A DNA stretch of 64,000 nucleotides from an uncultured virus (IMG/VR IMGVR_UViG_3300033068_001295) (Duplodnaviria; Heunggongvirae; Uroviricota; Caudoviricetes), in IMG/VR virus record IMGVR_UViG_3300033068_001295; one strand, given 5' to 3'. A program made the position numbers and the translations under genes. The notes beneath the pieces were generated by a model, which did not search any database, was not told where the DNA came from, and saw nothing but the letters and a program-made list of their open reading frames with translations. This document shows, in pieces, positions 8,900-56,341 of the stretch (within the stretch, counting starts at the first letter, position 1; the number at the start of each line of letters is the position of its first letter).

Positions 8900-9084
8900 A
8901 AACTTTTATATTTAGCTAAGGTACAAAGGCAGGAACATTAGAAACACGTCCGCTTGTGCATATAAAAGTTTTATAAAATAACTATTGTAACTAAATACAT
9001 GTTGGGTATGAATGTTAATCAGTTGAATCGAAGGTTTACACCAACAACCAAGAGAACTTGAAAGACTGTTACAATAGTTATTTT
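8900..9084 (+). ncRNA. two adjacent long-stem structured RNA candidates downstream of a promoter
   Basis: AAACTTTTATAT/ATATAAAAGTTT (8900-8911/8960-8971) and a perfect 17-bp AAAATAACTATTGTAAC/GTTACAATAGTTATTTT (8975-8991/9068-9084) with inner TGTTGG/CCAACA; TATATTTG promoter box about 8855-8862. Confidence 0.5.
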
Positions 9085-21048: not shown

Positions 21049-21987
21049 ATGAAAAGAAAATTCAATCTATACGACAAAATAATAAGTTTAGAAAATTTAT
21101 GTACTGCGGATAAAATTGCAAGACGAGGAAAATTAAAACAATATGGTGTACAAAAACATATAGAGAACGCAGAATATAATATTGGATGGTTGCATGAATT
21201 ACTGAATCACAGAAAATTTGAAACATCTGAGTATAAAGAGTTTCATATATTTCAGCCGAAACATAGAACAATAGCGAGATTACCATATTATCCAGATAGG
21301 ATATTACAACACGCCATTATTTTACAAATAGGAAGTGTACTAACAAGAACATTTGTTACCGATACCTATAGTTGCGTTAAAGGTAGAGGTATTATGAAAG
21401 CATCTTATACTCTTAGGAAAGCATTACAAAACGAGGAGTATAATAAGTATTGTCTAAAATTAGATATTAAAAAGTTTTATGAGAATATAGACCATGAGAT
21501 ACTAAAAGCGTTATTAAGAAAAAAGTTTAAGGACAAGGATTTACTTAATTTATTAGATGAAATAATAGACTCTAATACAGTAGGTTTACCATTAGGCTCT
21601 TTAGTGAGTCAGTATTTAGCTAATTTTTATCTGTGTTATTTAGACCACTTTATAAAACAGCATTTAAAAGTGAAGTATTTTTGGAGGTACATGGATGATA
21701 TTGTAATTATTGGAAACGATAAGAAAGAATTACATTTTGTTCTCGCCGAAATAAGAAAATACCTATTAGGGTTAAAGTTAGAAATAAAAAATAATTATCA
21801 AGTATTTGAAGTTGAGGATAGAGGTATTGATTTTGTAGGCTTTGTACATCGAAAAGAATACATTCTACTTAGAAAAACAATAAAACAAAATTATAAACAA
21901 AGTAAAAATAAAGAAATGTGGAACTCATGGTTAGTCCACTGTAATTCAATTAATTTAAGAAGAAAACATGAAAAAAGTAACGACTAA
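21049..21987 (+). CDS. DGR reverse transcriptase
   Basis: YPDRILQHA, LKLDIKKFY, GLPLGSLVSQYLAN, YMDD, IDFVG motifs; 312 aa with no maturase or endonuclease tail; adjacent TR. Confidence 0.95.
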   Translation: MKRKFNLYDKIISLENLCTADKIARRGKLKQYGVQKHIENAEYNIGWLHELLNHRKFETSEYKEFHIFQPKHRTIARLPYYPDRILQHAIILQIGSVLTRTFVTDTYSCVKGRGIMKASYTLRKALQNEEYNKYCLKLDIKKFYENIDHEILKALLRKKFKDKDLLNLLDEIIDSNTVGLPLGSLVSQYLANFYLCYLDHFIKQHLKVKYFWRYMDDIVIIGNDKKELHFVLAEIRKYLLGLKLEIKNNYQVFEVEDRGIDFVGFVHRKEYILLRKTIKQNYKQSKNKEMWNSWLVHCNSINLRRKHEKSND

Positions 21988-28365: not shown

Positions 28366-29055
28366 TATTTGGCAGTGTAAATTAAATGTTGTATGTTTGC
28401 TGAGGAATAAGGAAAGTAAGGCACTGTTTTAAAAATAACAAGCTTGTACAGAATTCTTAAATAAGAAGTAGCGTTAAGATTATTTTCTTTTTATTCTTTT
28501 TGCGGGCAACGTTCTTAAACGTATTACAGAAAAATTTAAATTAAAAATTATGACATTACAAGAGTTTTTATTCAGTTTTACATTTGTGTTTGGAGTATTG
28601 TATTTACTTTCTCATACACCTTTATTTACTAAATCACTAGAAACTTTTACGGAATCTTTAGTTTATAAAATAAATAATTTTTGGAAATTGGTAGGGTATT
28701 GGGTATTTTATTTATCTCTTTTTTATCAGTCTTTATTTTGGGCGAAATACCTTAATATTTTATAAAATTAAAAAAAGAAACAAGTATGAGCACAATTAAT
28801 AAGAGTATAAAAACAATACTCTCATGGGAAGATATAGCCCTGATAGCTGTTACTTTTGGTAATTACCAAAGTTTATACAAAGACAGATTAGACGAAGAGT
28901 TTATAAAGCGAGGTACTAGTCTTGTAAATAGGTTAGGTGCAGAAATGAGTGCATACCCTAAAAAAGATTTTACTAAAAAATAATTGCTGTAATAAAGAGG
29001 GTTTGGTGGTTTGGTAACTAATGTCTTATCTTGGAGTTACTATTACAGTTTTTAA

Positions 29056-29132
29056 GGTCTCGTATCTCCTCGCACTCATAATGCGTAGAAAGGGTAATTG
29101 GTTACATGACAGTTCGAGTCTGTCCGAGACCA
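29056..29132 (+). tRNA. atypical D-arm-less tRNA-like RNA, anticodon CAT
   Basis: Acceptor GGTCTCG/CGAGACC+A; T-arm GACAG-TTCGAGT-CTGTC; anticodon arm CGCA-CTCATAA-TGCG (CAT at 29077-29079); no D-arm; extra hairpin GTAA-TTGG-TTAC. Confidence 0.7.
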
Positions 29133-30258
29133 CAAATCAACGATGTCAACTAATTGTAGTATCTACAATTGCTATGAGTCAAACATAGAGGCTATTTATA
29201 GCTAGGAGTTAAAGAGGTAACAGCTCGGATTTTAAACCTTAAAAAACTACTGCTTTGAAATAATGTAGATTGAGAATATAGCTTGCTATGTTTAGATACC
29301 TCAACCATTTGGATAAGTTTTAGTGCGTGATGATATTTTTTAGCTACGGCGGAAATTTTTTGATTCACTTTTTAAATATATTACTATGGAAGATTATCAG
29401 GAAGTTAGTTTGAACAAGTTTAGAGAGGTGATTATTTTTTCCTTTTTGTTCTTTACTTTTTTATCGGGCGAAATTATTAGAACAAATGAATTTTGTAGTT
29501 TTGTAAAAATTCGGCAAGAAAAGATTAAATACAGATGGTTAAGATTTGATGACGGTTGGTCTTATATGTTTTATTGGGCGGGATGGTTATATAAATGGAG
29601 AAAAGTATAAAGTATTATGAGCAGATTTGATTATCCACATACATGTCCAGAAATAGATAAGAACATAAAAAGTTTTAAAGATGAGCTACATAACGGTTTG
29701 CTTGATATAGTAGGAGACTGTTGTCCTATGCTAGAGGGAGAACAACTTACAAAATTTATAGAACAATATGTTTCTCAAATTTATGACAGGTGTTCAGATA
29801 TATTTGAAAATGTACGAACCTGTAATGAGAATATTAGAAAAGGTGCCGAAAGACAATTAGAAGATGTTGAAAATGAAAATTCAGACTTAAAAGCAGAGTT
29901 AGATTATGCAAACACTAAAATAGAAGATTTAGAGTCATCGGTGGTCTGTTTAGAGAGTGAAATAGAGGATTTAGAAACAAGATTAAAAGATTTATAATGA
30001 AAAAACTAATAACAACACTACTTATAGCAACATTAATAAGTTGTTCAACAGAAAGTAGCAACAGAACAGCAAATACAGATTGTAACTGTATAGAAGTAAG
30101 AGAATATGCACTACAAAGTGAAAACTATGAAACGTGGTCTCAAATCTCAATAAGAGAGACAGACTATTCTTGTAGTATGGATAATTATACAGAGTTTTTA
30201 ACTCAGTATTTTAATCCAACTATTAATGATGTTGTGCGTGAACGTATAAGAATTAGTT

Positions 30259-30753
30259 GTGAATAACGACGGTATTTTTAAGCAACTGCCTGAGATAAGA
30301 AAAAATGGCAGTTTATATGAATGCATAAGAGAATTAATAGATAAAACCTTATCTAATAACGGTTTGCGTATAAAAAAAGCGTTTCAATGTTTTTTATACG
30401 CTGTTATAAGTATGTATTATTTTTGTTTTACCGATTAAAAAATATAATTATGGACTGTCAAAGACCAACAAAAAATGAAGAAACTGGTAAATGGGAAGTT
30501 TGGGATTTCGCTTATGAAGAAAATGGTGAAAGATATTATGAACTTCACGAGTTTTGGAAATATAAGGATGCTATTGAATTTTGGAAAATAAGAAACCCAA
30601 AACAAAAATAATATTACTTATAACTTAAATGTATTTACTGTTAAACATAACATAAGCGTTTTACCTAATGGTGAATATTATATGGAAGGTAAAAGAGTAG
30701 AAAAAGAGCAAATTTTTAAAGTGTTTAAACTAAGAAATTATGGAAATAAGTGA
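30259..30753 (+). pseudogene. 76-aa gene interrupted by a solo cassette at TAAC
   Basis: Removing 30361-30624 gives one ORF VNNDGIFKQ...KTLSNN|LNVFTVKH...RNYGNK*, overlapping both neighbouring genes as expected for phage gene packing. Confidence 0.75.
30361..30624 (+). mobile_element. solo integron-like cassette carrying ORF 30450..30611
   Basis: Short hairpin 30357-30406; ends GTTATAAGTATGTATTATTTTTG / CAAAAATAATATTACTTATAAC. Confidence 0.85.
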
Positions 30754-32065
30754 TAAAGTACAAGAGGCAGAATTTGATATAAATAAAAACTTAATAATAA
30801 GATATAAAAAAGGAGCAGGTTTTTATTTTTTAAAAAAAGTAAATGAACAATGGGAATCCCATACAAAAAGTTTCTGCGCAAACCCCTTAGCAATAGGTTT
30901 TAAAGAGCAATATGGCTTTGGTTTTAAAGACATCAAACCTTTCTTATTTGAAACTTTTGATAGTTGTCTCAAAGCGTCAAGAAGTTCTAAAGAGCAACCT
31001 TATTGGGAGTATAATCAATCAACACACCTAAAATATGGAAGTACCATAATGAGAAAAGAAAACCTTGAAAAAACTTTAAGAACGATTTTAAAAGGTTTTT
31101 TAAAATAGACAAAAATGCAAATAACAGACTACATAAATTGGAAAGAAATTTATAGAAAGGTAAGAAAAAACCATCTTAAAGAGTATCCAACAGCAAAGCA
31201 CTACACTGAATACTTAATTTCATTTGAAGAGCCTCATCACTACGTAAAAGACCTTTACGAAGCATTGAACCAAGATTTCTCGGATTTTGATACACCAAGT
31301 TCAGATAATTATGATGATAGTATATTAATTAAATATCTATCAGAAAAGCAGTTGTATTTAGAACTTTCTGTCGGTGGAAATAATGCTACAGAAAATGGAG
31401 ATGATTATTGGGGCTATGGATATGGTTTTACAATAGATTTAGATACAGAACTTTTTGTTGGGTATGATTTTGAAAACTACAGTTGATATGAAAATAACAA
31501 AGGAACAGTTAAATCAAGTTGGGTTATGGCAGTATCCTAAACAACCACATTTATTTGGTGAGTGGGAAGATATTGCATTTAATCAAAAAACAAATGAACT
31601 ATTTTATCACAGTTGTGTAGACGGAAGCTTAGACTTATACAGAAAAGTAAAAGATTTTGAAGATTTAAAAGAAGCCTTATATTATGGATTTTCTCATTAT
31701 TGGAAAGAGGATTAATCTGCCCGCAAAAAAAACTAAAAAATGAAAAGAATTTACATGAAAGCCACCCTATCTCTACTCTTAACAAGTAAGACAGAAGAAA
31801 CACAGAGTCTAATAAGTTCAGGAACGGTAAAAGAATTAGAAGGATTTGAACCATATTTAGTTATAGAAGATGAGTAAAGAACACTACAGTTATAAAGGCA
31901 AAGACTACTACATACAAGAAAAAGTAGAGCTGAAAAATCCCGAAACTAGAAAATGGCAAACAGCTTACATATATGTTCAAGTAGGTAGCGGATTAAAGTT
32001 TTGTAGAGAGATAAGAGATTTCAAAAGATTATTTATATTTGAGGGGTTTATAAAAGAATAATTAA

Positions 32066-34072
32066 ATGATTAATTTAGATAATGTTCTAGTAGGAGATAT
32101 TGAGAGTATTGGATACCTTGAAGAACTGAATTCTTTTGAAGATTTGCATGTATTTTCATGTGGGTATAAGTCTGAGGGAAGTTGGAGTATAAAATCTACT
32201 AACAAGAAAGAAGATATTCAAAAAGTTGTTGGTAATCCAAACAACACAATAGTTTTTCACAATGGAATTTCTTATGATAAGCCTGCACTAATTAGGATGG
32301 GGATAGATTTTAAAGCCCATATTATTGATACTCTTGCAATAAGCTACTATTTGTACAGCGAGAGGGACAAACATGGTTTAGAATCTTGGGGTGAATTTTT
32401 CAATGTGCCAAAACCTAAAATAGAAAATTGGAAGAATCTTACTTTTGAACAGTACAAAGAACGCTGTGAAGAAGATGTAAAAATTAATACTAATCTTTGG
32501 GTTATGATGCTCTCTTATTTAAGAGAGTTATATGATAGCAACGATGAACTTATAATAAAAACTATTAATTATTTAAATCATAAGGCAGAGATGCTTTATA
32601 TACAAGACCAAAACCCCGTTTTAATAGATGTAGAACAGTGTGATAAAAATATAGTATACCTAGAGGGCATAATAGCAGATAAAGAGACTCAATTAACATC
32701 TGTTATGCCAAAAATACCTGTAAAAGCTAAGAGAACAAAACCAAAGAATTTGTACAAAAAGGATGGGAGTTTAAGTGAAGCAGGTACAAAATGGAAGAGA
32801 TTAACAGATGGATGCAGTTTGCCACTAGAATATGATAACACTATTCTTGAAATTATAGGCTACGAAGAGCCAAATTGTCAGAGCCCCACGCAAATGAAAG
32901 ATTTTCTACTAGCTAAAGGTTGGATTCCTACTATTTACAAAGATGGAGCGAATGGTAAAGTAGCACAACTAAGGGATGATGAAAAAAATTTATGCCCTGG
33001 CATACAAAAATTGGCGGAAGAACTACCCGAATTAAACGCTCTTCTAGGACTCTCTCGTGCCCAACATAGATTAGGATACTTGAAATCCTTTAAAAAGCAC
33101 ACAAATAAAGATGGGTACGCAAAGGCTTGGGCACATGCCTATACTCGGACATTGCGATTAAAACACTCTGCACCATTTGTAAATCTTCCTAAACCCAACA
33201 CTGAATACGGAGAATTGGTTAGAAGTGTTATGATAGCTCCTAAAGGTTACAAATGTATAGGGGCAGATTTAAGTAGTATTGAAGACAAATGTAAACAAAT
33301 CTCTATTTATAGTTTAGATAAGGAATATGTTGAATCTATGAATTCAAAAGGTTGGGATGCACACTTAGCACTTGGGCTTAAAGCAGGGATGTTTACAGAA
33401 GATGAAGTTCAATTTTACAAATGGTACAAAAATTTAGGTAAAGAAGATAACACATATACTTGCCCTGAATCACTAGCGAATCTAACAGCGGATGAAAAAG
33501 AACACGCTTTTCATATTTTAGATAAGAAAAGGGCAGTAAGTAAAACAGGAAATTACGCTCTGACTTATGGTTGTGGGGTTGCTAAACTCATGGAGTCCAC
33601 GGAGTTACCTAAAAAAGAAGCTACGGCATTGCACAAAGGATACCATGACATAAATTGGAGTGTTAAGAAATTTGCAGAGACAAGAATAGCTAAGAAAGTA
33701 AAAGGTAGAAATTGGTTGAGATTAAATAAAAAAGTGGGTGGTTTGCAAGAAGTAGATGAGACTGTATGGATTTGGAATGAGTATACAAATCTGTGGCTAC
33801 TTTTAAAAAATGATAAAGACCGTTTTAGCAGTTGTAATCAAAATTTTGGGGTTAAAGTATTTGATACATGGAGCTACTTTTTGATGCAAGAGGGTATTAA
33901 ATTTTCATATCAAGCGCATGATGAACAATTTTGGTATTGCCCTGAAAATGAAGTAGATAAGCATATTGAAATCATCAAAAGAGCGATAAAAAAAACTAAT
34001 AAAGTATTTAACCCGCCTATTCCATTAGAGTGTGATTTTAAGATAGGGGAAAATTATGCGAAAGTCCACTAA
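32066..34072 (+). CDS. polA: family A DNA polymerase with 3'-5' exonuclease
   Basis: ExoI DIE, ExoII HNGISYD, motif A ADLSSIE, motif B RAVSKTGNYALTYG (Tyr at the E. coli 762-equivalent position, as in T7), motif C AHDE. Confidence 0.92.
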   Translation: MINLDNVLVGDIESIGYLEELNSFEDLHVFSCGYKSEGSWSIKSTNKKEDIQKVVGNPNNTIVFHNGISYDKPALIRMGIDFKAHIIDTLAISYYLYSERDKHGLESWGEFFNVPKPKIENWKNLTFEQYKERCEEDVKINTNLWVMMLSYLRELYDSNDELIIKTINYLNHKAEMLYIQDQNPVLIDVEQCDKNIVYLEGIIADKETQLTSVMPKIPVKAKRTKPKNLYKKDGSLSEAGTKWKRLTDGCSLPLEYDNTILEIIGYEEPNCQSPTQMKDFLLAKGWIPTIYKDGANGKVAQLRDDEKNLCPGIQKLAEELPELNALLGLSRAQHRLGYLKSFKKHTNKDGYAKAWAHAYTRTLRLKHSAPFVNLPKPNTEYGELVRSVMIAPKGYKCIGADLSSIEDKCKQISIYSLDKEYVESMNSKGWDAHLALGLKAGMFTEDEVQFYKWYKNLGKEDNTYTCPESLANLTADEKEHAFHILDKKRAVSKTGNYALTYGCGVAKLMESTELPKKEATALHKGYHDINWSVKKFAETRIAKKVKGRNWLRLNKKVGGLQEVDETVWIWNEYTNLWLLLKNDKDRFSSCNQNFGVKVFDTWSYFLMQEGIKFSYQAHDEQFWYCPENEVDKHIEIIKRAIKKTNKVFNPPIPLECDFKIGENYAKVH

Positions 34073-34249
34073 ATCACAAATAATTTTATCTTTTTGGTAG
34101 ATTATAATCAATGCTGTATATTAGTGTTTTGATTTTACATGCAGGTTTAATTGAAAAAATTAGATATATAAGAAATGATAAATAGTTGAAGACTTGTCTG
34201 ATTCCTCTGCATGGGATGGCTGACGAGTTTTCGGAGTTTATAGGATAAG

Positions 34250-34980
34250 ATGAAAAACTAAATAGAGTTGGAGAAAAATTAATCACAAACCAAGGTTATG
34301 AAATAGAAATTATAAATTGTGTAAATAGTAAAGAAATCACCGTACAGTTTAGCGACTTACTAAAGACAATTGTATCGGGTGTTAGGTACAGTGACATAAA
34401 AGGGCTTAGAAACCCTAATCATCTTAGCCACTTTAATCTAGGTTTTTTAGGACAAGGCTGCTATAACACGAAAGAGTATCCTAAAGCATATATTAAATGG
34501 AGAGGTATGTTGGAAAGATGCTATTGTAAAAAGTACCACACTAAAAAACCCACTTACATAGGTTGTTCAGTAGCAGAAGAATGGCATAGTTTCCAAAACT
34601 TTGCGCAATGGTTTTATGAAAATAGTACAGAAAGCTTTGAATTAGATAAAGATATTCTCATAAAAGGAAATAGGGTTTATTCATCTAAGACTTGTTGTTT
34701 TGTTCCTGCTGAGATTAATGTGCTATTTACTAAAATTAGTAGGAGGGGTAATTATCCTGTTGGGGTTTCTTTACACAAAGAAGGTAAATTTCAGGCATCG
34801 ATGTCTGTGAGTAATAAACAAATATATCTTGGTTTATATACTACACCCGAAGAAGCCTTCGAGATTTATAAAGAAGCTAAAGAGGAGTACATTAAAAAAT
34901 TTGCAGACAAATGGGAGGGACAAATTACAGAAGATGTCTATAATGCGTTGTACAAATACAAAGTAGAAATTAATGACTAA
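34250..34980 (+). pseudogene. HNH-type homing endonuclease-like gene with a 1-nt frameshift just after ATG
   Basis: ATG AAAAA CTA AAT AGA GTT GGA vs paralog 46652 ATG AAA AAA TTA AAT AGA GTA GGA; frame open from 34258 through track ORF 34507..34980 (LDKDIL..GN..YS..TCCFVP..IN). Confidence 0.7.
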
Positions 34981-35004
34981 AGAGTCTTTATAGGCTCTTT
35001 TTTT
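34980..35004 (+). terminator. intrinsic terminator
   Basis: AAGAGTCT-TTAT-AGGCTCTT followed by a T-run. Confidence 0.7.
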
Positions 35005-35144
35005 ATAAATAAAATATTTTACTTTTTTCTTGTGTATGTTATTTTATTGTTGTATGTTTGCTGTGTAGAAAACTTCTGTTTTAGTTTTTTTGCGGGCGAA
35101 GTTTTTAAATAAAATACACAAAAAAATAACTTAATTTTTAAATT

Positions 35145-35651
35145 ATGAAAACGCCAATTATTTTTCTTGACCTTGACGGGGTATTAAACTACGAAACCTA
35201 TTGGGCTAAGTGTTTTAAAAATGGGTACTCAGAAGAGTGGCATAAAAGATATTTTTGTCCTTTAGCTGTAAAAAGGTTAAATAGGATTACAGATGAAACT
35301 AAAGCACGAATTGTTTTTAGCAGTTCTCACCGATTTCACTTTGAAACTTTTGCGGAATTAAAAGATGGTTTCAAATTAGCAGGTATTACAGGAGAATTAA
35401 TTGGCGTAACTCCTAAATTAATATACACAGATGATACTTATTCTGTTCCACGTGGTTGTGAAATTAAGGCATGGATGGAACGAAATAAAGGTATTCTAGG
35501 TGCAAAAATTAGTGAAGTTAACTATGTAATCTTAGATGATGATACAGATATGTTATATTGGCAACGTAAGTCTTTCTTTTGTACTAAGGGTAAAGGGGGT
35601 TTAACTGAAGCTATCACCAACAAAGTTATTAAGTTTTTAAGGAGAGAGTAA
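35145..35651 (+). CDS. HAD-superfamily protein (Swiss-Army-knife RNA-repair type)
   Basis: IFLDLDGVLN, IVFSSS, RGCEIKAW, YVILDDDTDM. Confidence 0.85.
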   Translation: MKTPIIFLDLDGVLNYETYWAKCFKNGYSEEWHKRYFCPLAVKRLNRITDETKARIVFSSSHRFHFETFAELKDGFKLAGITGELIGVTPKLIYTDDTYSVPRGCEIKAWMERNKGILGAKISEVNYVILDDDTDMLYWQRKSFFCTKGKGGLTEAITNKVIKFLRRE

Positions 35652-35718
35652 AATTTCTCCTTTTTTATTTTGTAGTGTTAAATATTATATGTATATTTGT
35701 CAAATAAAAATATGAATT

Positions 35719-36999
35719 ATGAAAGACGTACTTATAAACGCAGAATATTCCATTAAGCAAATCAATTCTTTAGAATTGTCAAACAAATTAAAAAGCTACT
35801 TGTCCTTTAAAAATATTGATTTTAAATTATTCAACAGAAATTTATATGGATATCGGAATGAAGAAAAAGAAATGAATATCCCTGTTGAAGCTTATGAGTA
35901 TCAAAATTTTGTAGTTTTGGAAACAGAGAACGGTGATTATATTCTTCTTGATGGTTTTAGAAGACTATTATGGAATACAACCGTTGCTTATAATATAAAT
36001 GTAAGAGTTTACAAGCGAAAAGATTTATCTAGCACACAAATTTTAAGACTTTTAGTCTCATTAAACCACACTAAATTCTTTGCAGGATTAGGAGAATTTT
36101 ATGATAGAGGTTTTGCATTGGCTTTAAAAACTATATTTAACATAGATATATCAAAATTTTACAAATCTTTTGATGGGTATTTAACAGGGGATAAAGCAAA
36201 ATACGATTACTCAAACAGCAAATCAACAGGAGATGAAGCACATAACAAAGTAATTAATAAGATAATAAGTGATAACTTTTTAGCCGACATGGAGTTTTTA
36301 GAAAAGTGCTCTTCTTCTGAAATGATTAAATCTGACTTAGTTTTTGGAACTTTCATCTACAAGCTAAGAGAAGAAAATCCAAACTTATCTTTTAATTTTG
36401 ATGACTTTATTTCTAAAATACAAGTTACTCCTATTTTAATAAAACAAATTACTTCGTTTTTGAAATCTGTTGATGCAAGAGGTCACGATGTAGGAAATAA
36501 GATGTTTGAAATGTTTACCAATATACTGTTGAACAAAGAGGGAGAGAAATCATTTATTGAAAAAGAGTCAGAGGCTAAAGATTTAATTACAAAACTTAAA
36601 AAAGATAAAAAGTGGTATTGCTATACAAAAAGTAAAAAGATTGCATCTTATGATTTTTGGCAAAATCCTACAAAAGATAATAAGGGGATAAATACTTTAG
36701 TTTCTGAATATAAAGAGCAACATGGGTTTTTTCCTAAAGTCAAAGTTGTTGTTCTTCCATCGGAGAGACCTTTGTTAGAGTATGGGGAATACGACGATTT
36801 TGAAATTATAGGATTCAAAAATGGAAGTCATCTTATGAGTACATGGTCTATTCTTCAAGTTAAAAGAGGAGATGTTATGGTAGGGAAAAATTATGGCAAT
36901 AGTAACAGAACCGATTTATCATATATTGAAGATGGTAGCTTTGGTTATACAAGACTTTCTAATAATGTTTATTTATTTATTGAAAATATATTTAATTAG
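35719..36999 (+). CDS. protein with ParB/Srx-like N-terminal motif
   Basis: YILLDGFRRL. Confidence 0.45.
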   Translation: MKDVLINAEYSIKQINSLELSNKLKSYLSFKNIDFKLFNRNLYGYRNEEKEMNIPVEAYEYQNFVVLETENGDYILLDGFRRLLWNTTVAYNINVRVYKRKDLSSTQILRLLVSLNHTKFFAGLGEFYDRGFALALKTIFNIDISKFYKSFDGYLTGDKAKYDYSNSKSTGDEAHNKVINKIISDNFLADMEFLEKCSSSEMIKSDLVFGTFIYKLREENPNLSFNFDDFISKIQVTPILIKQITSFLKSVDARGHDVGNKMFEMFTNILLNKEGEKSFIEKESEAKDLITKLKKDKKWYCYTKSKKIASYDFWQNPTKDNKGINTLVSEYKEQHGFFPKVKVVVLPSERPLLEYGEYDDFEIIGFKNGSHLMSTWSILQVKRGDVMVGKNYGNSNRTDLSYIEDGSFGYTRLSNNVYLFIENIFN

Positions 37000-37514
37000 C
37001 TATGCAAATACTACTATTTACAAAAGGAAATTCAACTATTTATATCGCGCCAAAAAGTGAAAAACATAAACAGCAACTAATTTACAGATACGTAAAACTA
37101 AGAAAATATACACAACTACCTTATGTCGAACCTACGGCATAAGAAAAAACACCTTTTTAATTATGATAAAAATGTTATTACTTGTATTACTAGGTTTGTT
37201 TTTAGAAAGCAAGTATAAACCTAGACCTGATTGGATTAAAGACTCTAAAATGCTTATATTGCATTATAATGATGGTAAGAATGGTAGAAAATATAAAGTT
37301 ATTTTTAGATTATGATTCTTCCTATTTTTATTCCGCGACCCTATGAGTCAGATAACGGTATTTTGCTATACGAGGTTTGGGATAAAAAAGCCTAAATATT
37401 CGAGTTAGCCAAATAATAACCGACACAGACTGAACTTTAAATTGATAACCAAAGCCCAAATCTTGTATAGCAAATGTTAGCGGATGTACGGGTTAATTAA
37501 AAACGAAAATGTGA

Positions 37515-38249
37515 ATGAAATATATGGGAAGCAAAGCAAGATTTACCAAAGATATTTTGCCAATAATATTAGAAAACAGATTGCCAAATCAATATTTTGT
37601 TGATTTATTTACAGGCGGTGCAAATGTGGTTTCATTGGTTGATGGAAACCGAATTGCCAATGACAAAAATAAACACCTTATTGAAATGTTTAAAGGCTTA
37701 CAAAACGGAAATCATAGACCGTTTGAAATCTCAAAAGAACTTTATGACAAAGCAAGAACTGAATATAATAACGGCACAAACATTGAATTTGATGATTTTA
37801 TGATTGGGTGGATTGGATGGATGGGTTCTGCAAATGGAAGATTTTTTGATGGTGGATATTCTGGAACATCTAATACTAAAATCGGAACAGTTAGAAATTA
37901 TATAAAAGAAGCGATTAGTAATATTGAAAAGCAAAAACTAAACGGAATTAAATTTGTAAATCTTGATTATAAAGAAGTGGCAATTCCTAATAACAGTATT
38001 GTTTATTGTGACATTCCTTATGAAAATACAAAGCAATATTCAACATCAAAAGGATTTAATCATACTGAATTTTGGGATTATGCACGGAAATTATCTACTG
38101 AAGGACATTCAGTTTTTATTTCAGAATACAATGCTCCGAGTGATTTTAGATGTATTTGGCAAAAAGAAGCCAAATCTTCATTATCGGCAAATGGACAGAT
38201 TGGTGGGAACAAATGTTCTACTGAAAAACTATTCGAGTATATCCGCTAA
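37515..38249 (+). CDS. Dam-like (D12 class) N6-adenine DNA methyltransferase (cassette 1)
   Basis: MKYMGSK, DLFTGGA, YCDIPY, ISEY. Confidence 0.9.
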   Translation: MKYMGSKARFTKDILPIILENRLPNQYFVDLFTGGANVVSLVDGNRIANDKNKHLIEMFKGLQNGNHRPFEISKELYDKARTEYNNGTNIEFDDFMIGWIGWMGSANGRFFDGGYSGTSNTKIGTVRNYIKEAISNIEKQKLNGIKFVNLDYKEVAIPNNSIVYCDIPYENTKQYSTSKGFNHTEFWDYARKLSTEGHSVFISEYNAPSDFRCIWQKEAKSSLSANGQIGGNKCSTEKLFEYIR

Positions 38250-38318
38250 CGTTATCTCGCTTGCTCGTCGTTGTGGCGAATTAAAACAATATTAACAAAC
38301 AAACCTAAACTTTAAATT

Positions 38319-38993
38319 ATGCCCGAACTTTCAAAAAATACCGAGTGCCACAATGCGTGCAAACGAGTGTTAGCCCCAGTACGGGTTTTACACTTATACG
38401 CTGGACTTGGAGGAACTACGGATTTATTAGATGAAAATAAATTTGAAATAACTCACGTTGAATTAAATCCAAAAATTGCTAAAGTTCTACAAAAACGAAA
38501 ACCAAATCAAAAAGTAATAATTGCCGATGCGCATCAATTTCTTTTAGAAAATTATCAGGAGTATGATTTTATTATTTCAGGAATTCCTTGCCAAACACAT
38601 TCTAAAATGAACCGTGCAACCAGACACAATATGGTAAGGTTTATCGATGGAAAATTGATTGAAGAAATTGTTTTCTTAAAAACTTATTTTAAAGGAAAAT
38701 GGTTTGTTGAAAACGTAGTTCCATATTATGAGCCTTATGGAAATCCTACCAAATTAGGAAGGCATTTATTCTGGTCAAATTTTGATATTCCAGAAATGAT
38801 TGATTTGCCAAAATCGCCAAAAGGAATGATGAACCTTGCAACCGTTGGGCAGAAAAAACAAATGATGGATTGGCTTGGAATTCATTATGAAGAAAATATC
38901 TATTATGATGGAAATCATTGCCCAGTACAGATTTTACGAAACTGTGTACACCCAAAACTAGGACTACACGTCATTGAAAGCGCAAAATTCTAG
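38319..38993 (+). CDS. C5-cytosine DNA methyltransferase-like (cassette 2)
   Basis: LHLYAGLGG, GIPCQTHS, VENV, RNCV. Confidence 0.8.
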   Translation: MPELSKNTECHNACKRVLAPVRVLHLYAGLGGTTDLLDENKFEITHVELNPKIAKVLQKRKPNQKVIIADAHQFLLENYQEYDFIISGIPCQTHSKMNRATRHNMVRFIDGKLIEEIVFLKTYFKGKWFVENVVPYYEPYGNPTKLGRHLFWSNFDIPEMIDLPKSPKGMMNLATVGQKKQMMDWLGIHYEENIYYDGNHCPVQILRNCVHPKLGLHVIESAKF

Positions 38994-39112
38994 TATTGGG
39001 GCTAACGTTATCAGGCTTTGTGTCTGTTGCGTAAAAATAAACCAAAACATTAATTTAAACACTTAAAATTACAGATTATGACTAAACATTCAGAAAACAC
39101 CAAGCCAAGCCA

Positions 39113-39394
39113 TTGGACAAAACGGCTGTTAGCAGTAGTTATTCTATTGATTTATGCTTTGAAAATGTAGAACAAATGTTAATTGAAAATATTGCTGATT
39201 TGTTAGATGAAGAAGAAATTTTAATTCAAGAAGTAATGGCAGAATTAAAAGACCCAGAACCAAGAGAAAAAACAGAATTACATATTAGAATGGCAAAAGC
39301 AGCAATGAAAGAATATAAATCTACAATGTTGCAAAGTTCATTAAAAACTAATAATTTAGAGAATAACGGATTTTCTTTTAAAACAGGTGTGTAA
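39113..39394 (+). CDS. hypothetical protein (cassette 3)
   Basis: ORF filling the cassette; start uncertain. Confidence 0.55.
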   Translation: MDKTAVSSSYSIDLCFENVEQMLIENIADLLDEEEILIQEVMAELKDPEPREKTELHIRMAKAAMKEYKSTMLQSSLKTNNLENNGFSFKTGV

Positions 39395-39552
39395 TTACTG
39401 CTAACGGTTTGCAGATAGGCGATGTGGCACTTGTAGAATGTTGAAATTTAGCACAAATGTTTCTGTGCCATTTCTTATATACGCTGTTACCTGCTGGTGC
39501 GGTTTATTACTACAAAACTAAAATTGAAATACTAAACAAAAAATTATTAAAA

Positions 39553-40389
39553 ATGAGCGTAGGCAAAAAAGAAAAAATAAACGTATTATCATTGTTTGAT
39601 GGTATGAGTTGCGGACAAATTGCACTCAACAGAACAGGCATTTCCTATGGCAAATATTATGCCTCAGAGATTGATAAACACGCAATCAAAGTAACACAAC
39701 ACAATTACCCTGACACTATACAACTTGGAAGTATTACAGAAATTAAAGGCACGGATTTACCGCAAATTGATTTATTGATAGGCGGAAGCCCTTGCCAAGG
39801 ATTTTCATTTGCTGGAAAAGGGTTAAACTTTGACGACCCAAGAAGTAAATTGTTTTTTGAGTTTGTTAGAATATTAAAAGAAACTAAACCAAAATACTTC
39901 TTACTTGAAAACGTAAAGATGAAAAAGGAGTTTCAAGACATTATCAGCGAACAACTTGGAGTAAAGCCTATATTGATAAATTCAAGTTTGGTATCTGCCC
40001 AAAACCGTGAAAGATTGTATTGGACAAATATTCCACTAAACGGAATGCCAAAAGACAAAGGATTATTTTTAAAAGATATAATTGAAAAAGGAGCAGGTAA
40101 AAAACTATCTGAACAAACCGCAGAAAGACCAAGAACATTGAGGAATTACAGAAATGAAAATCAAAAAGCATTTTGTATGCTTGCAACTATGTGGAAAGGC
40201 TCACAAAGCAATGGAATGACAGTAATAGATGATAATGGATTAAGAAACATAACACCTTTAGAATGTGAAAGATTACAAACCGTTCCTGATAATTACACAA
40301 ATGTAGTTGCGGACACAAATAGATACACAATGCTTGGAAATGGGTGGAACGTTGATACAATCGCTCATATTTTCGGAGGACTGTCCTAG
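39553..40389 (+). CDS. dcm: C5-cytosine DNA methyltransferase (cassette 4)
   Basis: LSLFDGMSCG, GGSPCQGFS, LLENV, QNRERLYW, ERLQ, LGNGW. Confidence 0.92.
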   Translation: MSVGKKEKINVLSLFDGMSCGQIALNRTGISYGKYYASEIDKHAIKVTQHNYPDTIQLGSITEIKGTDLPQIDLLIGGSPCQGFSFAGKGLNFDDPRSKLFFEFVRILKETKPKYFLLENVKMKKEFQDIISEQLGVKPILINSSLVSAQNRERLYWTNIPLNGMPKDKGLFLKDIIEKGAGKKLSEQTAERPRTLRNYRNENQKAFCMLATMWKGSQSNGMTVIDDNGLRNITPLECERLQTVPDNYTNVVADTNRYTMLGNGWNVDTIAHIFGGLS

Positions 40390-40531
40390 CATTACGCCTA
40401 ACGGCTGCGTGTATGAAACGTTGCCTACACAAAAGTTAAAAAAATGAACAGAATTATAAATTTAGTATAAACTTAAAAAAAGACCGCGAAAGGCAATGTT
40501 TTATACACGTTGTTATGTGGCGTTAATTGTT

Positions 40532-40720
40532 ATGGAAATTATTCAAAACGATTTTTCAAAGGAATTATCCGAGTTACTTAAAAAGTACAAGAAAATAATA
40601 ACTGCTGATAAATCAGGTATTCATATCATTGATTGTGATAATATCGAAGCGGTTATAATTCAAAAAGCGACAGTTGCTTCTGAGGATTATAGAGATACTT
40701 TAATGTTTGTGGTTTCTTAA
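40532..40720 (+). CDS. hypothetical protein (cassette 5)
   Basis: ORF between cassette ends. Confidence 0.6.
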   Translation: MEIIQNDFSKELSELLKKYKKIITADKSGIHIIDCDNIEAVIIQKATVASEDYRDTLMFVVS

Positions 40721-40807
40721 TGCCACATAACGTCCGCAGGTATATTTCAGTTGCGGAATACGAAGCACTTAATTATCAAATTAGTAATAACTTAAATAGA
40801 AAGAAAA

Positions 40808-41047
40808 ATGTCGAATAAAACACAAAAACCGCAATTGAATATACCTGTTGTTATGCACTGGGTATCAGTTGTATATGAATTACCACCTAAAAACGAAATA
40901 GTTATAGGTTATTTCCCAAGAGGTGCAAAAAGAGGGCAAAAAGCAACTCCAAAAAGCATTACTCAAAAAGAAAGTAGTAAAACATTTACAGGTGTCGCAA
41001 AGGCAATGGCTGAACAATGGTCGGTCGTTCTCACAGCTTGCACCTAA
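40808..41047 (+). pseudogene. chimeric ORF: DUF551-like N-terminus + methyltransferase-like C-terminus (cassette 6)
   Basis: HWVSVVYELPP... joined to SKTFTGVAKAMAEQW; the cassette's two ends do not match each other. Confidence 0.6.
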
Positions 41048-41199
41048 CGTTCGAGTGCTTGGCGAAGAAGCGGATAAAGAAGCCAAAAGCTTCAATTAAG
41101 CACCAAACTAACAAATAAAAAACAAACTTTAAATTAATAACCGAACCAGCTTTTTTGCCAAACACTTGTTATGGTTAGTGCGGTTCATTAAAACAAAAC

Positions 41200-41679
41200 G
41201 TGATGAAACAATTAAATCAAATTATCAAAACATTAAGAGAAGAAACGGCTTTTTCATTTGCTGAAAAGAAATTAGAAATACTTAGAAGTCAAAAAGACTA
41301 TGAAGAAACAATGAAACAATGTTACAGCGGAAAAGATAATCCAACAATTGAAGAATGTGTTCAGAATGCTATTAGAACATTTGTTTCTGAATATCAAAAA
41401 ATGTGTGAGATTTATTCAGGATGGTTGAAAAATGGATGCGTTTTTATTTTAGATAAACGAGATAGATTTGTTCTTGCTTTATACAAGGTTGATGATATTG
41501 CACATACGGCAATTGCACATTATAACCCAATGAATGTTGATTGTATAGAACAATCAACATCTAATAAACATTTTTTTGAACAGTTAAATGCCCGTTTTGA
41601 TATTTCTACGGATGAAAATTTATTAATTGAAGAATGTGACGAATTAGTTAAAAATACCGTTGATAAGGTTATTTCGTAG
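41200..41679 (+). CDS. hypothetical protein (cassette 7)
   Basis: ORF between matched cassette ends. Confidence 0.7.
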   Translation: MMKQLNQIIKTLREETAFSFAEKKLEILRSQKDYEETMKQCYSGKDNPTIEECVQNAIRTFVSEYQKMCEIYSGWLKNGCVFILDKRDRFVLALYKVDDIAHTAIAHYNPMNVDCIEQSTSNKHFFEQLNARFDISTDENLLIEECDELVKNTVDKVIS

Positions 41680-41811
41680 CATTAACCATAACGGATTGCG
41701 GCTTTGTGTCTGTTTGCCCCTTGCACAAAGTTTCAATTTAACGACAAACTTAATGGGGCAAATAGCACAAAACCGCTGTTATGCGTAGTGGCGGTTTAAT
41801 AACGAGAAATT

Positions 41812-42330
41812 ATGAGTAGAAAAGGAATACCAACAAAACCAAACAAAACAGAAAAGGCAACCGCTGCTGATAGTGTATTCACAAAAAACACAACAGCCAA
41901 ATGGATTGTAGATTATTTCAAAGCACAAGGCTCAATATTAGAACCTGCTGCTGGTGAAAATGCTTTTTATAACCTATTTGATAACGAAGAAAAATACCGA
42001 TGCGAAATAACTGATGGGCTTGATTTTTTCGAGTGGGATAAAAAAGTGGATTGGATAATCACAAACCCACCTTACAGTATTTACGATTTGTTTCTTCAAA
42101 AAGCATTTTCTGTTGCTGATAACGTTGTGTTTTTTGTTCCGATTGCAAAGGCTTTCAAAAGTAATAAGATACAACAAATGGTAATTGATTACGGTGGATT
42201 GAAAGAGATAGTATATATGGGCGGTGGAAGTAAACATGGGTTTGCTTTTGGATTCCCTGTCGGTTGCCTACATTATCAAAAAGGTTTTGTTGGTGATTGT
42301 AAGATAACTTATGTAATGGACGGATGGTAG
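41812..42330 (+). CDS. amino (N6A/N4C) DNA methyltransferase (cassette 8)
   Basis: ILEPAAGENAF, DFF, IITNPPYS. Confidence 0.85.
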   Translation: MSRKGIPTKPNKTEKATAADSVFTKNTTAKWIVDYFKAQGSILEPAAGENAFYNLFDNEEKYRCEITDGLDFFEWDKKVDWIITNPPYSIYDLFLQKAFSVADNVVFFVPIAKAFKSNKIQQMVIDYGGLKEIVYMGGGSKHGFAFGFPVGCLHYQKGFVGDCKITYVMDGW

Positions 42331-42407
42331 CCATTACGCATAACGGTAAACGGCTTTGCGTAGTGCCGACTTAAAACTACGAATTATCAACTTAAAACAA
42401 ATTTAAA

Positions 42408-42662
42408 ATGAGTGCAAAAATTATCAGTGAAAAACTAACTAAGGCATTACGCAAAACCGATGTTAGCAGCAGTTTTATTCCTCCCGATAACGGTGATGTG
42501 CGTTGGCAAGCAGGTTCAGAAACATTTACAAGGGAAGAAGTAGCTTCTTTATTGTGGACACAAATTGCAATGATAAGTAACGACCTAAGAATCTGCTGCG
42601 GGAAGGACTTGACAAAAGATATGTATGAAGTTATTGATAACCCTCGAATACCAGAGTTCTAA
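42408..42662 (+). CDS. hypothetical protein (cassette 9), start codon inside the hairpin
   Basis: ORF reads through GTTA 42462. Confidence 0.6.
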   Translation: MSAKIISEKLTKALRKTDVSSSFIPPDNGDVRWQAGSETFTREEVASLLWTQIAMISNDLRICCGKDLTKDMYEVIDNPRIPEF

Positions 42663-42836
42663 AAATTGCTGCTAACGTTTTGTAGCTTGTTGCAGTGGCG
42701 TGCAAATAAGCGAGTAGTTTCGGTTTAAAAACTATAATAACAGAGAAGCCAAAACATTAAATTAAACAACAACAACCAGCCATTGCTACAAACTACTGTT
42801 ATAGGTAGTGGCGGGTAACTAAAACAAAGCGTAATT

Positions 42837-43058
42837 ATGAAAACAAAAAATAGTTTTCCAAGTTCTGAGTTTGAACACAAAGACAGATGTCCTTCTTGTG
42901 GGAGTTATTGTAATATACATATAGATTTAAACGAAAAAGACGAGTGTAATGATTGCAAACACTCTTGTAAAAATTGTGGAGATACGGAAGAAATTTCAGA
43001 AGAATATGATTTATGTTATAAATGTTGGAAGGAATTTTCTCCCGATGCAGATTGTTAG
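42837..43058 (+). CDS. Cys-rich zinc-finger-like protein (cassette 10)
   Basis: Multiple CxxC pairs. Confidence 0.6.
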   Translation: MKTKNSFPSSEFEHKDRCPSCGSYCNIHIDLNEKDECNDCKHSCKNCGDTEEISEEYDLCYKCWKEFSPDADC

Positions 43059-43224
43059 CCATAACCTATAACGTATTGGTGCTTTACGTCCGTTGTGGTT
43101 AAACAAGCCTAAACTTTCCTGTTATCACGAAATTAAACTGATGCAAAACAAACTTAATATTAAACCTAAACCCACAATGGCGTAAAACACTTGTTAGCCG
43201 TTCGGTTTTTAAACACAAATTAAA

Positions 43225-43446
43225 ATGAAAAATTTAGCAAACATTGAAGTATTTAACATCGAAATTACAGAAAAAGGAACATTTGCACACATTTCCTTTC
43301 AAGATTTAGACAACACAGACAACTTAAATAATGGTTACGATAATATTCGTGTGCCAATGAATTTAAGACCAATTCAATTATCTGTTAGAGATAATATGTT
43401 AGTTAATCAATCAGTTAAAAATTATGTAGATGTCGTTGGTTCTTAA
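43225..43446 (+). CDS. hypothetical protein (cassette 11)
   Basis: ORF between matched cassette ends. Confidence 0.65.
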   Translation: MKNLANIEVFNIEITEKGTFAHISFQDLDNTDNLNNGYDNIRVPMNLRPIQLSVRDNMLVNQSVKNYVDVVGS

Positions 43447-43608
43447 ACTGACGGCTAACGTCGGATGCTACACGATGGATGGGAAAAGCACAAACCCATA
43501 TATCGATTTAAGACAGATTAAACAGGTGCAAAAACCAACTTTAAATTTAACCTAAAACCAGCTATTGTGTAGCATATGTTACTGGCTGTGTTTTTAACAC
43601 TAAACGAA

Positions 43609-43938
43609 ATGAAAAAAGTATTAAGATTTTTATCAAGCAAAAAATGGATTTATGAATTAGCATTAAGCATAATAGCTAATAGAATTGTTCACTCACAAAA
43701 TTTATTAAGACCTGATTATTTAATTGCAAAAGGTTGGATTGAAGAAGATGGATTTTATTTTGAGCCAAACACAAAAGACAGAGATAAAATTTGGATTCAA
43801 TTTGAAAACCATTATTTCAGAGTATGGCACGGAAAAGAAAAAACATTCATTGGATTAGAAAGTAAAGTTGAATGGTTTGAAACTTATTTCTTAATGGCTC
43901 ATTCGGATAATGGTCGTTATGAAATGGCTGGCGTGTAA
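43609..43938 (+). CDS. hypothetical protein (cassette 12)
   Basis: ORF between matched cassette ends. Confidence 0.65.
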   Translation: MKKVLRFLSSKKWIYELALSIIANRIVHSQNLLRPDYLIAKGWIEEDGFYFEPNTKDRDKIWIQFENHYFRVWHGKEKTFIGLESKVEWFETYFLMAHSDNGRYEMAGV

Positions 43939-44054
43939 CATAGCCAGTAACGGTTTGCGTATATACGAGGTACGCCTTAACGAAATTTTAAATTATAAAC
44001 AAATGCTTGTAGGCGTATCTTGTATATACGCTGTTATAAGCTGTAAAAAATACG

Positions 44055-44252
44055 ATGATGGAAAACGAACAAATCAAAAAGGAATGTGAACAAATGTATG
44101 CACAAATTAAAAGTGCAGAAGAAAGACTAAAGGAATTGACAGCAATTTGCAAACACGAAAAAACTTTTGAAGGCAATTACTCTTGGCGAGTGGGAAACAT
44201 TCAACCAGCAGACATTTGTGAATACTGTGGCTCGTTGGTAAGGTATAAGTAG
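44055..44252 (+). CDS. hypothetical protein (cassette 13)
   Basis: ORF between matched cassette ends; CxH...CxxC. Confidence 0.65.
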   Translation: MMENEQIKKECEQMYAQIKSAEERLKELTAICKHEKTFEGNYSWRVGNIQPADICEYCGSLVRYK

Positions 44253-44433
44253 TATTTTTTATTGCTTATAACGTTTTCGGGCTTGGCGAAGTGCCGCACA
44301 GCAGAAACTTCGGATTTGAGCAGGAACTTTCTTGCGGCATTTTGGCAAACCGCTGTTATGCGTATGTGCCGACTTGTTTAGCAGGAATTTCATTTGGAAC
44401 ACGAATAGAAATTTTTAATTAAACCATAACGAA

Positions 44434-45039
44434 ATGACAAAAGATTGGACAGGAAACAGCAACAGCATCTATAAGACTTTAGGTGCAAGCAATCATACTG
44501 ATAAAGAAAGGCAGAATGAAGATTATTACGCAACAGACCCGAAAGCAGCCGATTTGCTTTTAGAACTTGAAACATTTTCGCCAAATATTTGGGAGTGTGC
44601 TTGTGGTGAAGGGCATTTAAGCAAGGTGTTTGAAAACGCTGGACATATAGTTAAAAGCACCGACCTAATGGATAGGGGATTTGGTGAAACAGGGATAGAC
44701 TTTTTGAGCATTGACAACTTGGAATGGAACGGAGATATTATTACAAACCCACCTTACAAGTATGCACAGGAATTTATTGAAAAGGCATTACATATTATAC
44801 CCGAAGGAAACAAGGTAGCAATGTTTTTGAAAATACAATTTTTGGAAGGTAAAGGGCGAAAAAAGTTGTTTCTATCACAACCACCAAAGACCGTTTATGT
44901 TTCAAGTTCTCGGCTGCTTTGTGCAAAGAACGCTGAATTTGAAAAAATGATTGCTGGAGGTGGAAGTGCTGTTGCTTATGCTTGGTATGTATGGCAAAAA
45001 GGCTTCAATGGAACGACAGAACTCAAATGGTTTAATTAA
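44434..45039 (+). CDS. amino (N6A/N4C) DNA methyltransferase (cassette 14)
   Basis: DYYATDP, IWECACGEGHLS, IITNPPYK, YAWYVW. Confidence 0.85.
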   Translation: MTKDWTGNSNSIYKTLGASNHTDKERQNEDYYATDPKAADLLLELETFSPNIWECACGEGHLSKVFENAGHIVKSTDLMDRGFGETGIDFLSIDNLEWNGDIITNPPYKYAQEFIEKALHIIPEGNKVAMFLKIQFLEGKGRKKLFLSQPPKTVYVSSSRLLCAKNAEFEKMIAGGGSAVAYAWYVWQKGFNGTTELKWFN

Positions 45040-45145
45040 AAATTTCAAACGAGAATGTCAATCGGAGAACGTCTGCAAGGCATTACGCATAACTGCTATA
45101 TATCCTCACCTATATAAAAACACTAATAAAATAAATATCTGACAG

Positions 45146-55940: not shown

Positions 55941-56341
55941 TGTTTTACTTCTTTAATTAGTCTAGTTAAATCATTATAAACCTGTAATATGCCTGCTCGG
56001 TCATCTATATACACGTTTGCATAAACTTTTCTTGAATCTTTACCCGAAGCCCAATTTCCATTAATTTGTAAATTTTCATTTATTAAATCCCAAGGAATAT
56101 TGTTATCTGTAAGATAAATATCCATATCATTAATATTCTCACTGCCTGACCAAATAATTATCTTACATCCTATTGAATGTAGGTCTCTAACTAGTTGATG
56201 AACCATTTCATAAGATTCTCCTGTTCCGTGAAAATCAAAAAGAGTGTCGTCATAATCAACAGCAACAATTAAACTTCCATATTTATTATATTCAGCCCAC
56301 AATCTTTCGTAGGCTGAATTTGGTTGTAGATACTTATCCAT
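55937..56341 (-). CDS. HAD-like hydrolase
   Basis: IVAVDYDDTL, IIWS, KVYANVYIDDRA. Confidence 0.75.
   Translation of the reverse strand: MDKYLQPNSAYERLWAEYNKYGSLIVAVDYDDTLFDFHGTGESYEMVHQLVRDLHSIGCKIIIWSGSENINDMDIYLTDNNIPWDLINENLQINGNWASGKDSRKVYANVYIDDRAGILQVYNDLTRLIKEVKQ

Follow-up and report, generated by a model that had tools for sequence, protein, structure and literature searches.

We begin with a segment of 264 nucleotides at positions 30361 to 30624 of the window, by which we mean the whole 64,000-nt stretch of DNA that was analysed. A real gene is interrupted by this discrete unit, whose design is shared by cassette arrays and by stray copies in other phages. In our reading, which we hold with good confidence, it is a cassette of a phage-borne integron-like system, and its off-target insertion inactivated a small phage gene. 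The features of the locus are as follows.

30259 to 30360, + strand: N-terminal half of the interrupted 76-codon gene (34 codons, GTG start)
30356 to 30360, + strand: left junction, the target's own copy of ATAAC, now the 5' box of the hairpin site
30357 to 30410, + strand: attC-like folded site (pattern, arm complementarity, folding)
30361 to 30624, + strand: inserted cassette, 264 nt (deletion registers, recurrence elsewhere)
30403 to 30429, + strand: cassette head, the GTTATAAG box and its extension, an inverted repeat with the tail
30450 to 30611, + strand: cargo gene, 53 aa (52 homologous clusters, third-position differences)
30598 to 30624, + strand: cassette tail ending in CTTATAAC, followed by the right junction
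30625 to 30753, + strand: C-terminal half of the interrupted gene (42 codons plus stop)

The window is AT-rich (about 30% GC) and phage-like, with tightly packed + strand genes that include a DNA polymerase A, a DnaB-like helicase and a reverse transcriptase (21049 to 21987, RVT_1, E 1.4e-20). A 977-aa protein encoded at 14315 to 17248 contains DUF4874/DUF4832 and a type IX secretion C-terminal sorting domain, and this sorting tail hints at a Bacteroidota host. On the minus strand, NAMPT-like and phosphoribosyltransferase genes (55110 to 57803) suggest an NAD salvage module. A tRNA search of the window returns none. When the region 29000 to 33000 is compared by blastn with 50,697 phage records, three short DNA-polymerase matches are the only result. 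A pattern scan of viral contigs gives no relatives of the flanking 122-aa protein or of the DNA polymerase, and a DNA search with 29600 to 31500 in five recombinase-bearing records matches the hairpin head alone.

The interrupted gene is tightly fitted between its neighbors. Its GTG start (30259) overlaps the stop (30264 to 30266) of the upstream ORF 29997 to 30266, its N-terminal half runs to ...CTAATAAC (30360), and its stop overlaps the ATG at 30740 of the next gene. The sequence-only reading had claimed that removing 30361 to 30624 (264 nt) restores a 76-codon ORF overlapping both the upstream stop and the downstream start; making this deletion in the sequence gives exactly one such ORF, with both overlaps present. 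One TAAC was said to be left at the join, and TAAC is indeed there, but the junction repeat is longer, comprising the five nucleotides ATAAC. With ATAAC at each of the two junctions, the deletion can be drawn in six registers (-5 to 0) that all yield the same product. That the insert length is a multiple of three had been raised as a caveat. It proves harmless: there are three in-frame stops in the insert, so the split gene is broken although 264 is divisible by three, and the sister inserts described below measure 262 and 320 nt.

Does an uninterrupted relative of the split gene exist? With the gene read through, its stops written as X, and searched against 1.84 billion representative proteins, P0004 (77 aa, from a metagenome) matches both halves in order with an E value of 1.7e-9. 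The two halves do not go to unrelated proteins; this single contiguous homologue, of the kind proposed earlier as a check on the rejoined protein, spans both. Residues 4 to 31 of P0004 align to the N-terminal half with 50% identity over 32 aligned positions, and residues 35 to 68 to the C-terminal half with 59% identity over 34 positions; compared pairwise with the two halves, P0004 gives E values of 5e-8 and 2e-13. A 3-residue indel separates it from the rejoined protein right at the junction. P0004 is the sole contiguous homologue among the 1.84 billion representatives, the remaining three matches of the read-through search being alternative-frame translations of related cassettes. A further search seeded with P0004 brings no additional family members, the 59-aa truncated ORF has no match in a word-indexed protein search, and pattern scans of viral and metagenome contigs for the P0004-coding DNA confirm nothing.

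This homologue bears on an alternative in which nothing was inserted at all: two unrelated short ORFs would flank an ordinary small gene with a terminator-like hairpin upstream, and the restored frame would be due to chance. An insert length divisible by three and a tiny split-gene family with one homologue would agree with such an arrangement. We regard it as extremely improbable, since one protein matches both halves in order at the pairwise E values given above, the boundaries are those of a recurrent unit, and a sister copy of that unit splits a tRNA gene.

No empty-site allele is seen in the sequencing data: in X6, the run in which the window is found, none of the contigs lacks the 264 nt, which is weak evidence because contigs drop rare variants. 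The four runs (X1 to X3 and X6) consist of contigs only, those of X1 to X3 being short low-depth pieces, and the X6 contigs break at the repeated hairpin (30403 to 30431). One X6 contig (depth 6.9, shorter side 28 nt) joins 30442 to 30593 and skips 150 nt of cargo; this joint may mean that the sample also contains a different cargo with these ends.

Within the insertion that we favor, the hairpin, the GTTA end, the 53-aa ORF and the terminal TAAC all lie where the sequence-only reading had placed them. The folded site consists, in order, of TAAC, the 5-nt spacer GGTTT, a 12-bp stem, a 12-nt loop, the spacer T and GTTATAAG. The hairpin arms (30366 to 30377 and 30390 to 30401) are 12 nt each and 100% complementary. 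In the predicted fold, ATAAC pairs with GTTAT, and a G of the GGTTT spacer pairs as G.T, so that a 4-nt bulge remains on the 5' arm. The window has one occurrence of the hairpin pattern, where 100 shuffles give an expectation of 0.00, and 30353 to 30410, folded as single-stranded DNA, has an energy of -11.1 kcal/mol (z -3.83) that is equalled by 0 of 200 shuffles. The same design is found in the array site 43949 to 44035. The box GTTATAAG at 30403 to 30410 has its complement, CTTATAAC, at 30617 to 30624, and the head (30403 to 30429) and tail (30598 to 30624) together form a 27-nt inverted repeat with 25 of 27 positions matching when read by eye. There is no hairpin 3' of the tail, where 30590 to 30660 folds at z +0.58. 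A group I or group II intron, or another Rfam RNA, was considered for the insert and rejected, as no covariance model matches inside it; the one match in an Rfam scan of 29900 to 31100 is GIR1, outside the insert, with 19.8 bits against a gathering score of 100.

The cargo ORF is a real gene, with 52 homologous protein clusters (63 to 98% identity), and the 53-aa frame is the true one: in relatives' contigs, 9 of the 13 listed differences, counted by hand, fall on third codon positions. The protein has no match in Pfam or NCBIfam. The same gene is also present in seven viral loci. In three of these (L079, L081 and L082) its head and tail are of another type, GTTATGTGGC...GCCACATAAC, which in the window array flank a different 74-aa ORF (40400 to 40731); the remaining loci of the seven show no clear site. 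On one 122-kb phage contig (L078, 2200 to 2700) the cargo gene is found between tRNA-like sequences (GGTTCGAATCC motifs) with no hairpin site. Since three loci combine the cargo gene with another head and tail, an exchange other than whole-unit movement also operates, by which cargo and ends are re-assorted.

We consider now the same unit in other phages. A 22-letter pattern, made of the 3' arm of the hairpin and the GTTATAAGT box, was scanned against viral contigs. The head (hairpin and GTTATAAGT) is found at 14 further distinct places on 13 viral contigs, and at 12 of these 14 the CTTATAAC tail is found too. Together with the window copy this makes 13 complete cassettes with 12 different cargo ORFs, as L066 and L070 share one; 11 cargo genes other than that of the window are thus enclosed by the same head and tail. 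Around these 12 unrelated ORFs the heads and tails are near-identical (L063 to L076, and window 30403 to 30450 and 30590 to 30624), and their inner inverted repeat comes in two mirror-image variants, AAAACAAAAATTAT versus TATTATTTTTGTTTT. Two contig records of other metagenomes (X2 record 13 and X3 record 23) have tail similarity that stops exactly at 30624, and in X3 record 21 head similarity starts at 30357.

At 12 of the 14 places the head is preceded by TAAC, as in arrays; the two exceptions, L070 and L067, are stray copies. In L070 (1474 to 1735; L056/L070, the IMG/VR contig of L003), a 262-nt sister cassette lies inside a tRNA-Met(CAT) gene, 13 kb downstream of that phage's recombinase gene; it separates the D arm from the anticodon stem. 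Run on the native sequence, ARAGORN reports no tRNA; with the 262 nt taken out, it reports a tRNA-Met(CAT). The L067 unit measures 320 nt and deprives an ORF of its final 12 codons. The mobile unit suggested earlier, hairpin-GTTA-gene-TAAC, recurs elsewhere with other cargos, and also inside a tRNA-Met gene, so that movement of whole units is supported.

The window carries the remaining parts of the system at some distance from the stray cassette.

12401 to 13299, + strand: mini-array of two cassettes with sites of the same family, at a distance of 32 kb from the recombinase
37354 to 45093, + strand: main cassette array, 14 cassettes (boxes read by eye, site scan)
45094 to 45145, + strand: attI-like platform TGCTATATATCC..., 52 nt from the last array TAAC to the recombinase start codon
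45146 to 45946, + strand: Xer-like tyrosine recombinase, 266 aa, the presumed catalyst (PF00589, PF13495)

Each array cassette is bounded by GTTAnnnn ... n'n'n'n'TAAC, with hairpin sites of 50 to 140 nt between cassettes. Read by eye, the start and end boxes are complementary in 12 of the 14. In the cassettes 39487 to 40402 and 40850 to 41048 the boxes are not complementary beyond GTTA/TAAC, and these two may be fused or decayed units. Four of the array cargos are DNA methyltransferase-like, which fits a role in evading host restriction. Between 37430 and 43545 the loops of long array sites carry a recurring AACTTTAAATT-like motif, often just 5' of a start codon, which may represent a phage promoter or leader that forms part of the site. 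In the mini-array, the sites start CAGGTAAC/GGATT (12401) and CCTATAAC/GGTC (12832), and the cargos are the ORFs 12560 to 12826 and 12996 to 13286. The boxes of its second cassette match imperfectly (GTTATCAG versus CTCATAAC).

The platform has a motif of its own, namely TAAC followed by a conserved TAYTATATAT-like (T-N-N-TATAT) sequence, roughly 50 to 75 nt (about 55) before the recombinase start. We examined 30 of 55 recombinase loci for it, hand-picked for enough upstream DNA; 29 have the motif, with its TAAC closing a variable cassette tail, and one has CAAC. The idea that the target of the stray cassette mimics the attI-like sequence was dropped, as 6 of 12 positions match after TAAC by eye, the level that chance gives in AT-rich DNA.

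Where, then, is the cassette cut? The ambiguity zones of the three stray copies (window, L070 and L067) are ATAAC, CG and CGAT. Because the three zones overlap there only, they support a crossover on the coding strand at AA/C or AAC/ (the slash marks the cut) of the box 5' of the hairpin. The platforms agree with a crossover in AAC, since 29 of the 30 loci have TAAC immediately followed by the conserved platform sequence. The crossover had been placed at the TAAC core before, and the three stray copies and the platform junctions bear this out and sharpen it to the two positions. The classical cut at G/TT of the GTTA box, with a unit of gene and then hairpin, was rejected: in all three stray copies the hairpin is upstream and target DNA stands directly after the tail, whereas with that cut the hairpin would follow the gene and three array genes would be split. 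These three are cassettes whose ORFs appear to start inside the upstream site, before GTTA (ATG at 38319, 40808 and 42408); the firmest case is the first, where the ORF has a C5-methylase Pfam match from residue 22 onward.

The targets of the three stray copies end in TAAC (window), GCTC and AAGC, so TAAC is present in one of three. TAAC is not required in the target, and the shared requirement seen in the three is a C at the crossover. The earlier statement that the unit can insert at secondary TAAC sites about 7 kb from the array holds for the distance (6.7 kb, from 30624 to 37354), but its restriction to TAAC sites is too tight.

These targets also speak to the possibility that the segment is the remnant of an IS200/IS605-type hairpin-ended single-strand transposon, or a miniature inverted-repeat element moved by a transposase. 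Such an element would account for a hairpin near one end, for an insertion just 3' of a short motif in this window and for the 27-nt inverted repeat around the cargo. It would be expected to have a fixed target tetranucleotide, which TAAC, GCTC and AAGC do not provide, and a hairpin at its second end, which is missing; no target duplication borders the inverted repeats, and the hairpin, although external to them, accompanies them in every case. Among the 130 ORFs of the window, none is found to have a Y1 or DDE transposase domain, and the identical design builds the array that adjoins the recombinase. We consider a transposon origin quite improbable.

For the integron-like cassette, the strand that is folded can be read from the asymmetry of the sites. 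We used a detector that treats both orientations alike, which yields 226 sites in the window and the 55 loci. In 215 of the 226 the 5' arm has the longer spacer, and the spacers of the 5' and 3' arms are (5,1) or (5,2) in 160. The stems of the 226 sites contain 337 G.T/T.G pairs on the + strand against 62 A.C/C.A positions, which would be wobble pairs on the other strand. In the stray site, the + strand pairs the TAAC/GTTA boxes and the minus strand does not. Given the spacer asymmetry, the G.T excess and the box pairing on the + strand, the coding (+) strand is most likely the one that is folded and recombined. The window also has a near-perfect long palindrome at 8979 to 9080, AAAATAACTATTGTAAC ... 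GTTACAATAGTTATTTT, without spacer asymmetry; this is an element of another kind than the cassette sites.

The recombinase gene directly follows the platform. Its product matches PF00589 (2.4e-36) and PF13495, and it scores below the curated cut-offs for XerA (172.6 against 220), XerD (148.3 against 329.6) and XerC (145.5 against 335). Against the IntI model TIGR02249 it reaches 150.3 bits, where the cut-off is 265, and is matched in two stretches. The protein aligns end to end with the archaeal XerA (4a8e), the catalytic R, K, H-x-x-R-H and Y being visible in the alignment, and it is without about 47 residues of IntI4 (2a3v), query residues 177 to 208 facing chain residues 181 to 259. Among cultured phages it has no close homologue, the best match in 50,697 phage records being 35% identical; homologues with 47 to 79% identity are found in 55 viral loci.

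In these 55 loci, 209 oriented sites lie upstream of the recombinase gene on the same strand; 5 upstream sites are reversed, and 5 and 2 lie downstream, the DNA scanned amounting to 346 kb upstream and 456 kb downstream. At least one site is present in 39 of the 41 loci that have at least 1.5 kb of upstream DNA. The site scanner is a home-made heuristic, a looser version of which makes 7 to 10 matches on shuffled copies of the window versus 20 on the real + strand. The arrays are thus tightly linked, in fixed orientation, to the Xer-like recombinase gene. From this we infer that the Xer-like enzyme is the catalyst of cassette movement; a host enzyme could also do the recombination in its place.

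Could the segment have arrived with no site-specific recombinase involved? Illegitimate or microhomology recombination through the ATAAC shared by tail and target, as part of ordinary phage mosaicism, would explain the 5-nt identity at the junction, and exchange not bounded by sites does occur, as shown by the cargo being found with other heads and tails or without a site. For the other two stray copies, however, the identity with the target is just 2 and 4 nt, and they still have the same cut point of the cassette circle, which is also the junction used in the arrays. The fixed orientation of sites and recombinase gene, 209 against 12, is a further argument against this explanation, and we judge it unlikely.

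A mechanism for site-specific cassette insertion can be proposed from these pieces. The recombinase would bind a site folded from the coding (+) strand, in which TAAC pairs with GTTA, four nucleotides bulge out on the 5' arm and the inner stem is formed. Cleavage would take place inside the 5' AAC triplet, at AA/C by analogy with IntI or alternatively at AAC/. That single strand would be exchanged with a target bearing a C at the crossover, and the product would be resolved by replication. An off-target reaction with a site that needs little more than a C would leave a stray copy. With the cut placed in the box upstream of the hairpin, the unit in its linear form would be hairpin-gene, the mirror image of the classical gene-attC, and the site, together with any promoter in it, would travel before its gene. 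The stray copy has a full site on its left side only and is for this reason probably stranded, like integron cassettes at secondary sites. The stem of the stray site is perfect and has none of the extrahelical bases that IntI uses for strand choice, and the analogy with the chemistry of IntI is to be taken with that difference in mind.

How does this system compare with integrons? Integron attC sites are imperfect hairpins with RYYYAAC ... GTTRRRY boxes and a crossover that separates the A from the C of AAC. In a classical integron the bottom strand is recombined, and the gene comes before its attC and is expressed from Pc. The definition of Cury et al. 2016 and IntegronFinder is said to comprise an IntI-clade integrase with a specific additional domain, attC sites and an attI platform. 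The phage recombinase differs in having no IntI-specific insert, and its gene is co-directional with the cassettes and downstream of them, whereas the classical layout is divergent. The stray phage site also lacks extrahelical bases, and its box complementarity reaches 27 nt.

As described in the relevant parts of PMC5027507, AAC...GTT are the sole conserved letters of classical attC and the crossover lies in the AAC triplet; the top-strand AAC lies in R'', and its use would invert the cassette; and each attC has extrahelical bases and a 5 to 6 nt unpaired spacer in each arm. Measured against that description, the phage sites are likewise folded hairpins with AAC...GTT boxes (TAAC...GTTA plus an inner stem) and a putative crossover in AAC; the two ends of a cassette complement each other, a platform beside a tyrosine recombinase borders the array, and the cargos are single small genes. 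The differences from the same description are that the phage system would cut the AAC of the coding strand, the 'wrong' top strand classically, that the hairpin precedes the gene, and that the spacers are 5 nt versus 1 to 2 nt rather than 5 to 6 on each arm.

Classical cassettes can insert genome-wide at attG sites (Loot et al. 2024 Nat Microbiol, as cited in PMC12614218). According to the part of PMC12614218 that treats them, such insertions share with ours a lone cassette outside an array, a minimal target requirement and a full site on one side only. Ours differs in being located in a phage genome, inside a coding gene (a tRNA gene in a relative), in its mirror-image layout and in its non-IntI enzyme.

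Clusters of attC without integrase (CALINs) are described by Qi et al. 2023 in virulent phages, with methyltransferase cassettes and a Polaribacter phage among the examples in the portion of the text concerned (PMC9892861). The same portion reports that phage attC sites are recombined by the bacterial IntI1, with a preference for the bottom strand. AttC-type sites and methyltransferase cassettes in phages are common to both systems; by that description, PMC9892861 reports no such phage recombinase, in-gene stray cassette or crossover mapping. A CALIN is defined by two or more attC and no integron integrase nearby, while the window has no IntI but does have a dedicated recombinase.

According to PMC5027507, XerC and XerD are the one further case of tyrosine recombinases known to use folded single-stranded DNA as a substrate for recombination. 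The best sequence and structure-database matches of the phage recombinase are to XerC/XerD/XerA; it differs from them in lying below every curated cut-off and in heading cassette arrays, and no dif-like function is implied. The PeSL cassettes of T4-type phages resemble the present ones as small phage genes preceded by a stem-loop and shuffled between genomes. Their shuffling is attributed to homologous recombination, and we know of no dedicated recombinase and no AAC/GTT boxes in them. In the literature searched we find no account of a phage Xer-like recombinase heading such arrays, nor of coding-strand recombination or an in-gene stray cassette in such systems. The phage system would thus be a variant of the integron principle, with natural evidence at the nucleotide level for the crossover at this locus.

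The stray cassette amounts to a natural experiment, with an uninterrupted relative (P0004) and edges known to the nucleotide. Combined with the two sister insertions and the array and platform junctions, it narrows the putative crossover to one or two phosphodiester bonds and points to the strand from sequence. Site, strand, cut point and enzyme form a concrete substrate for reconstitution, and the compact pair of recombinase and hairpin site suggests itself for trial as a tool for cassette insertion. How phages come by their accessory genes, and how these end up between or within core genes, is usually ascribed to rare illegitimate recombination. We give about even chances to the broader proposition that large Bacteroidota-type phages carry their own integron analogue, in which a short Xer-like recombinase and sites folded from the coding strand sprinkle self-expressing genes genome-wide, even into genes and tRNA genes. 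If true, phage 'morons' would have a site-specific route of origin in this analogue, and so would genome mosaicism.
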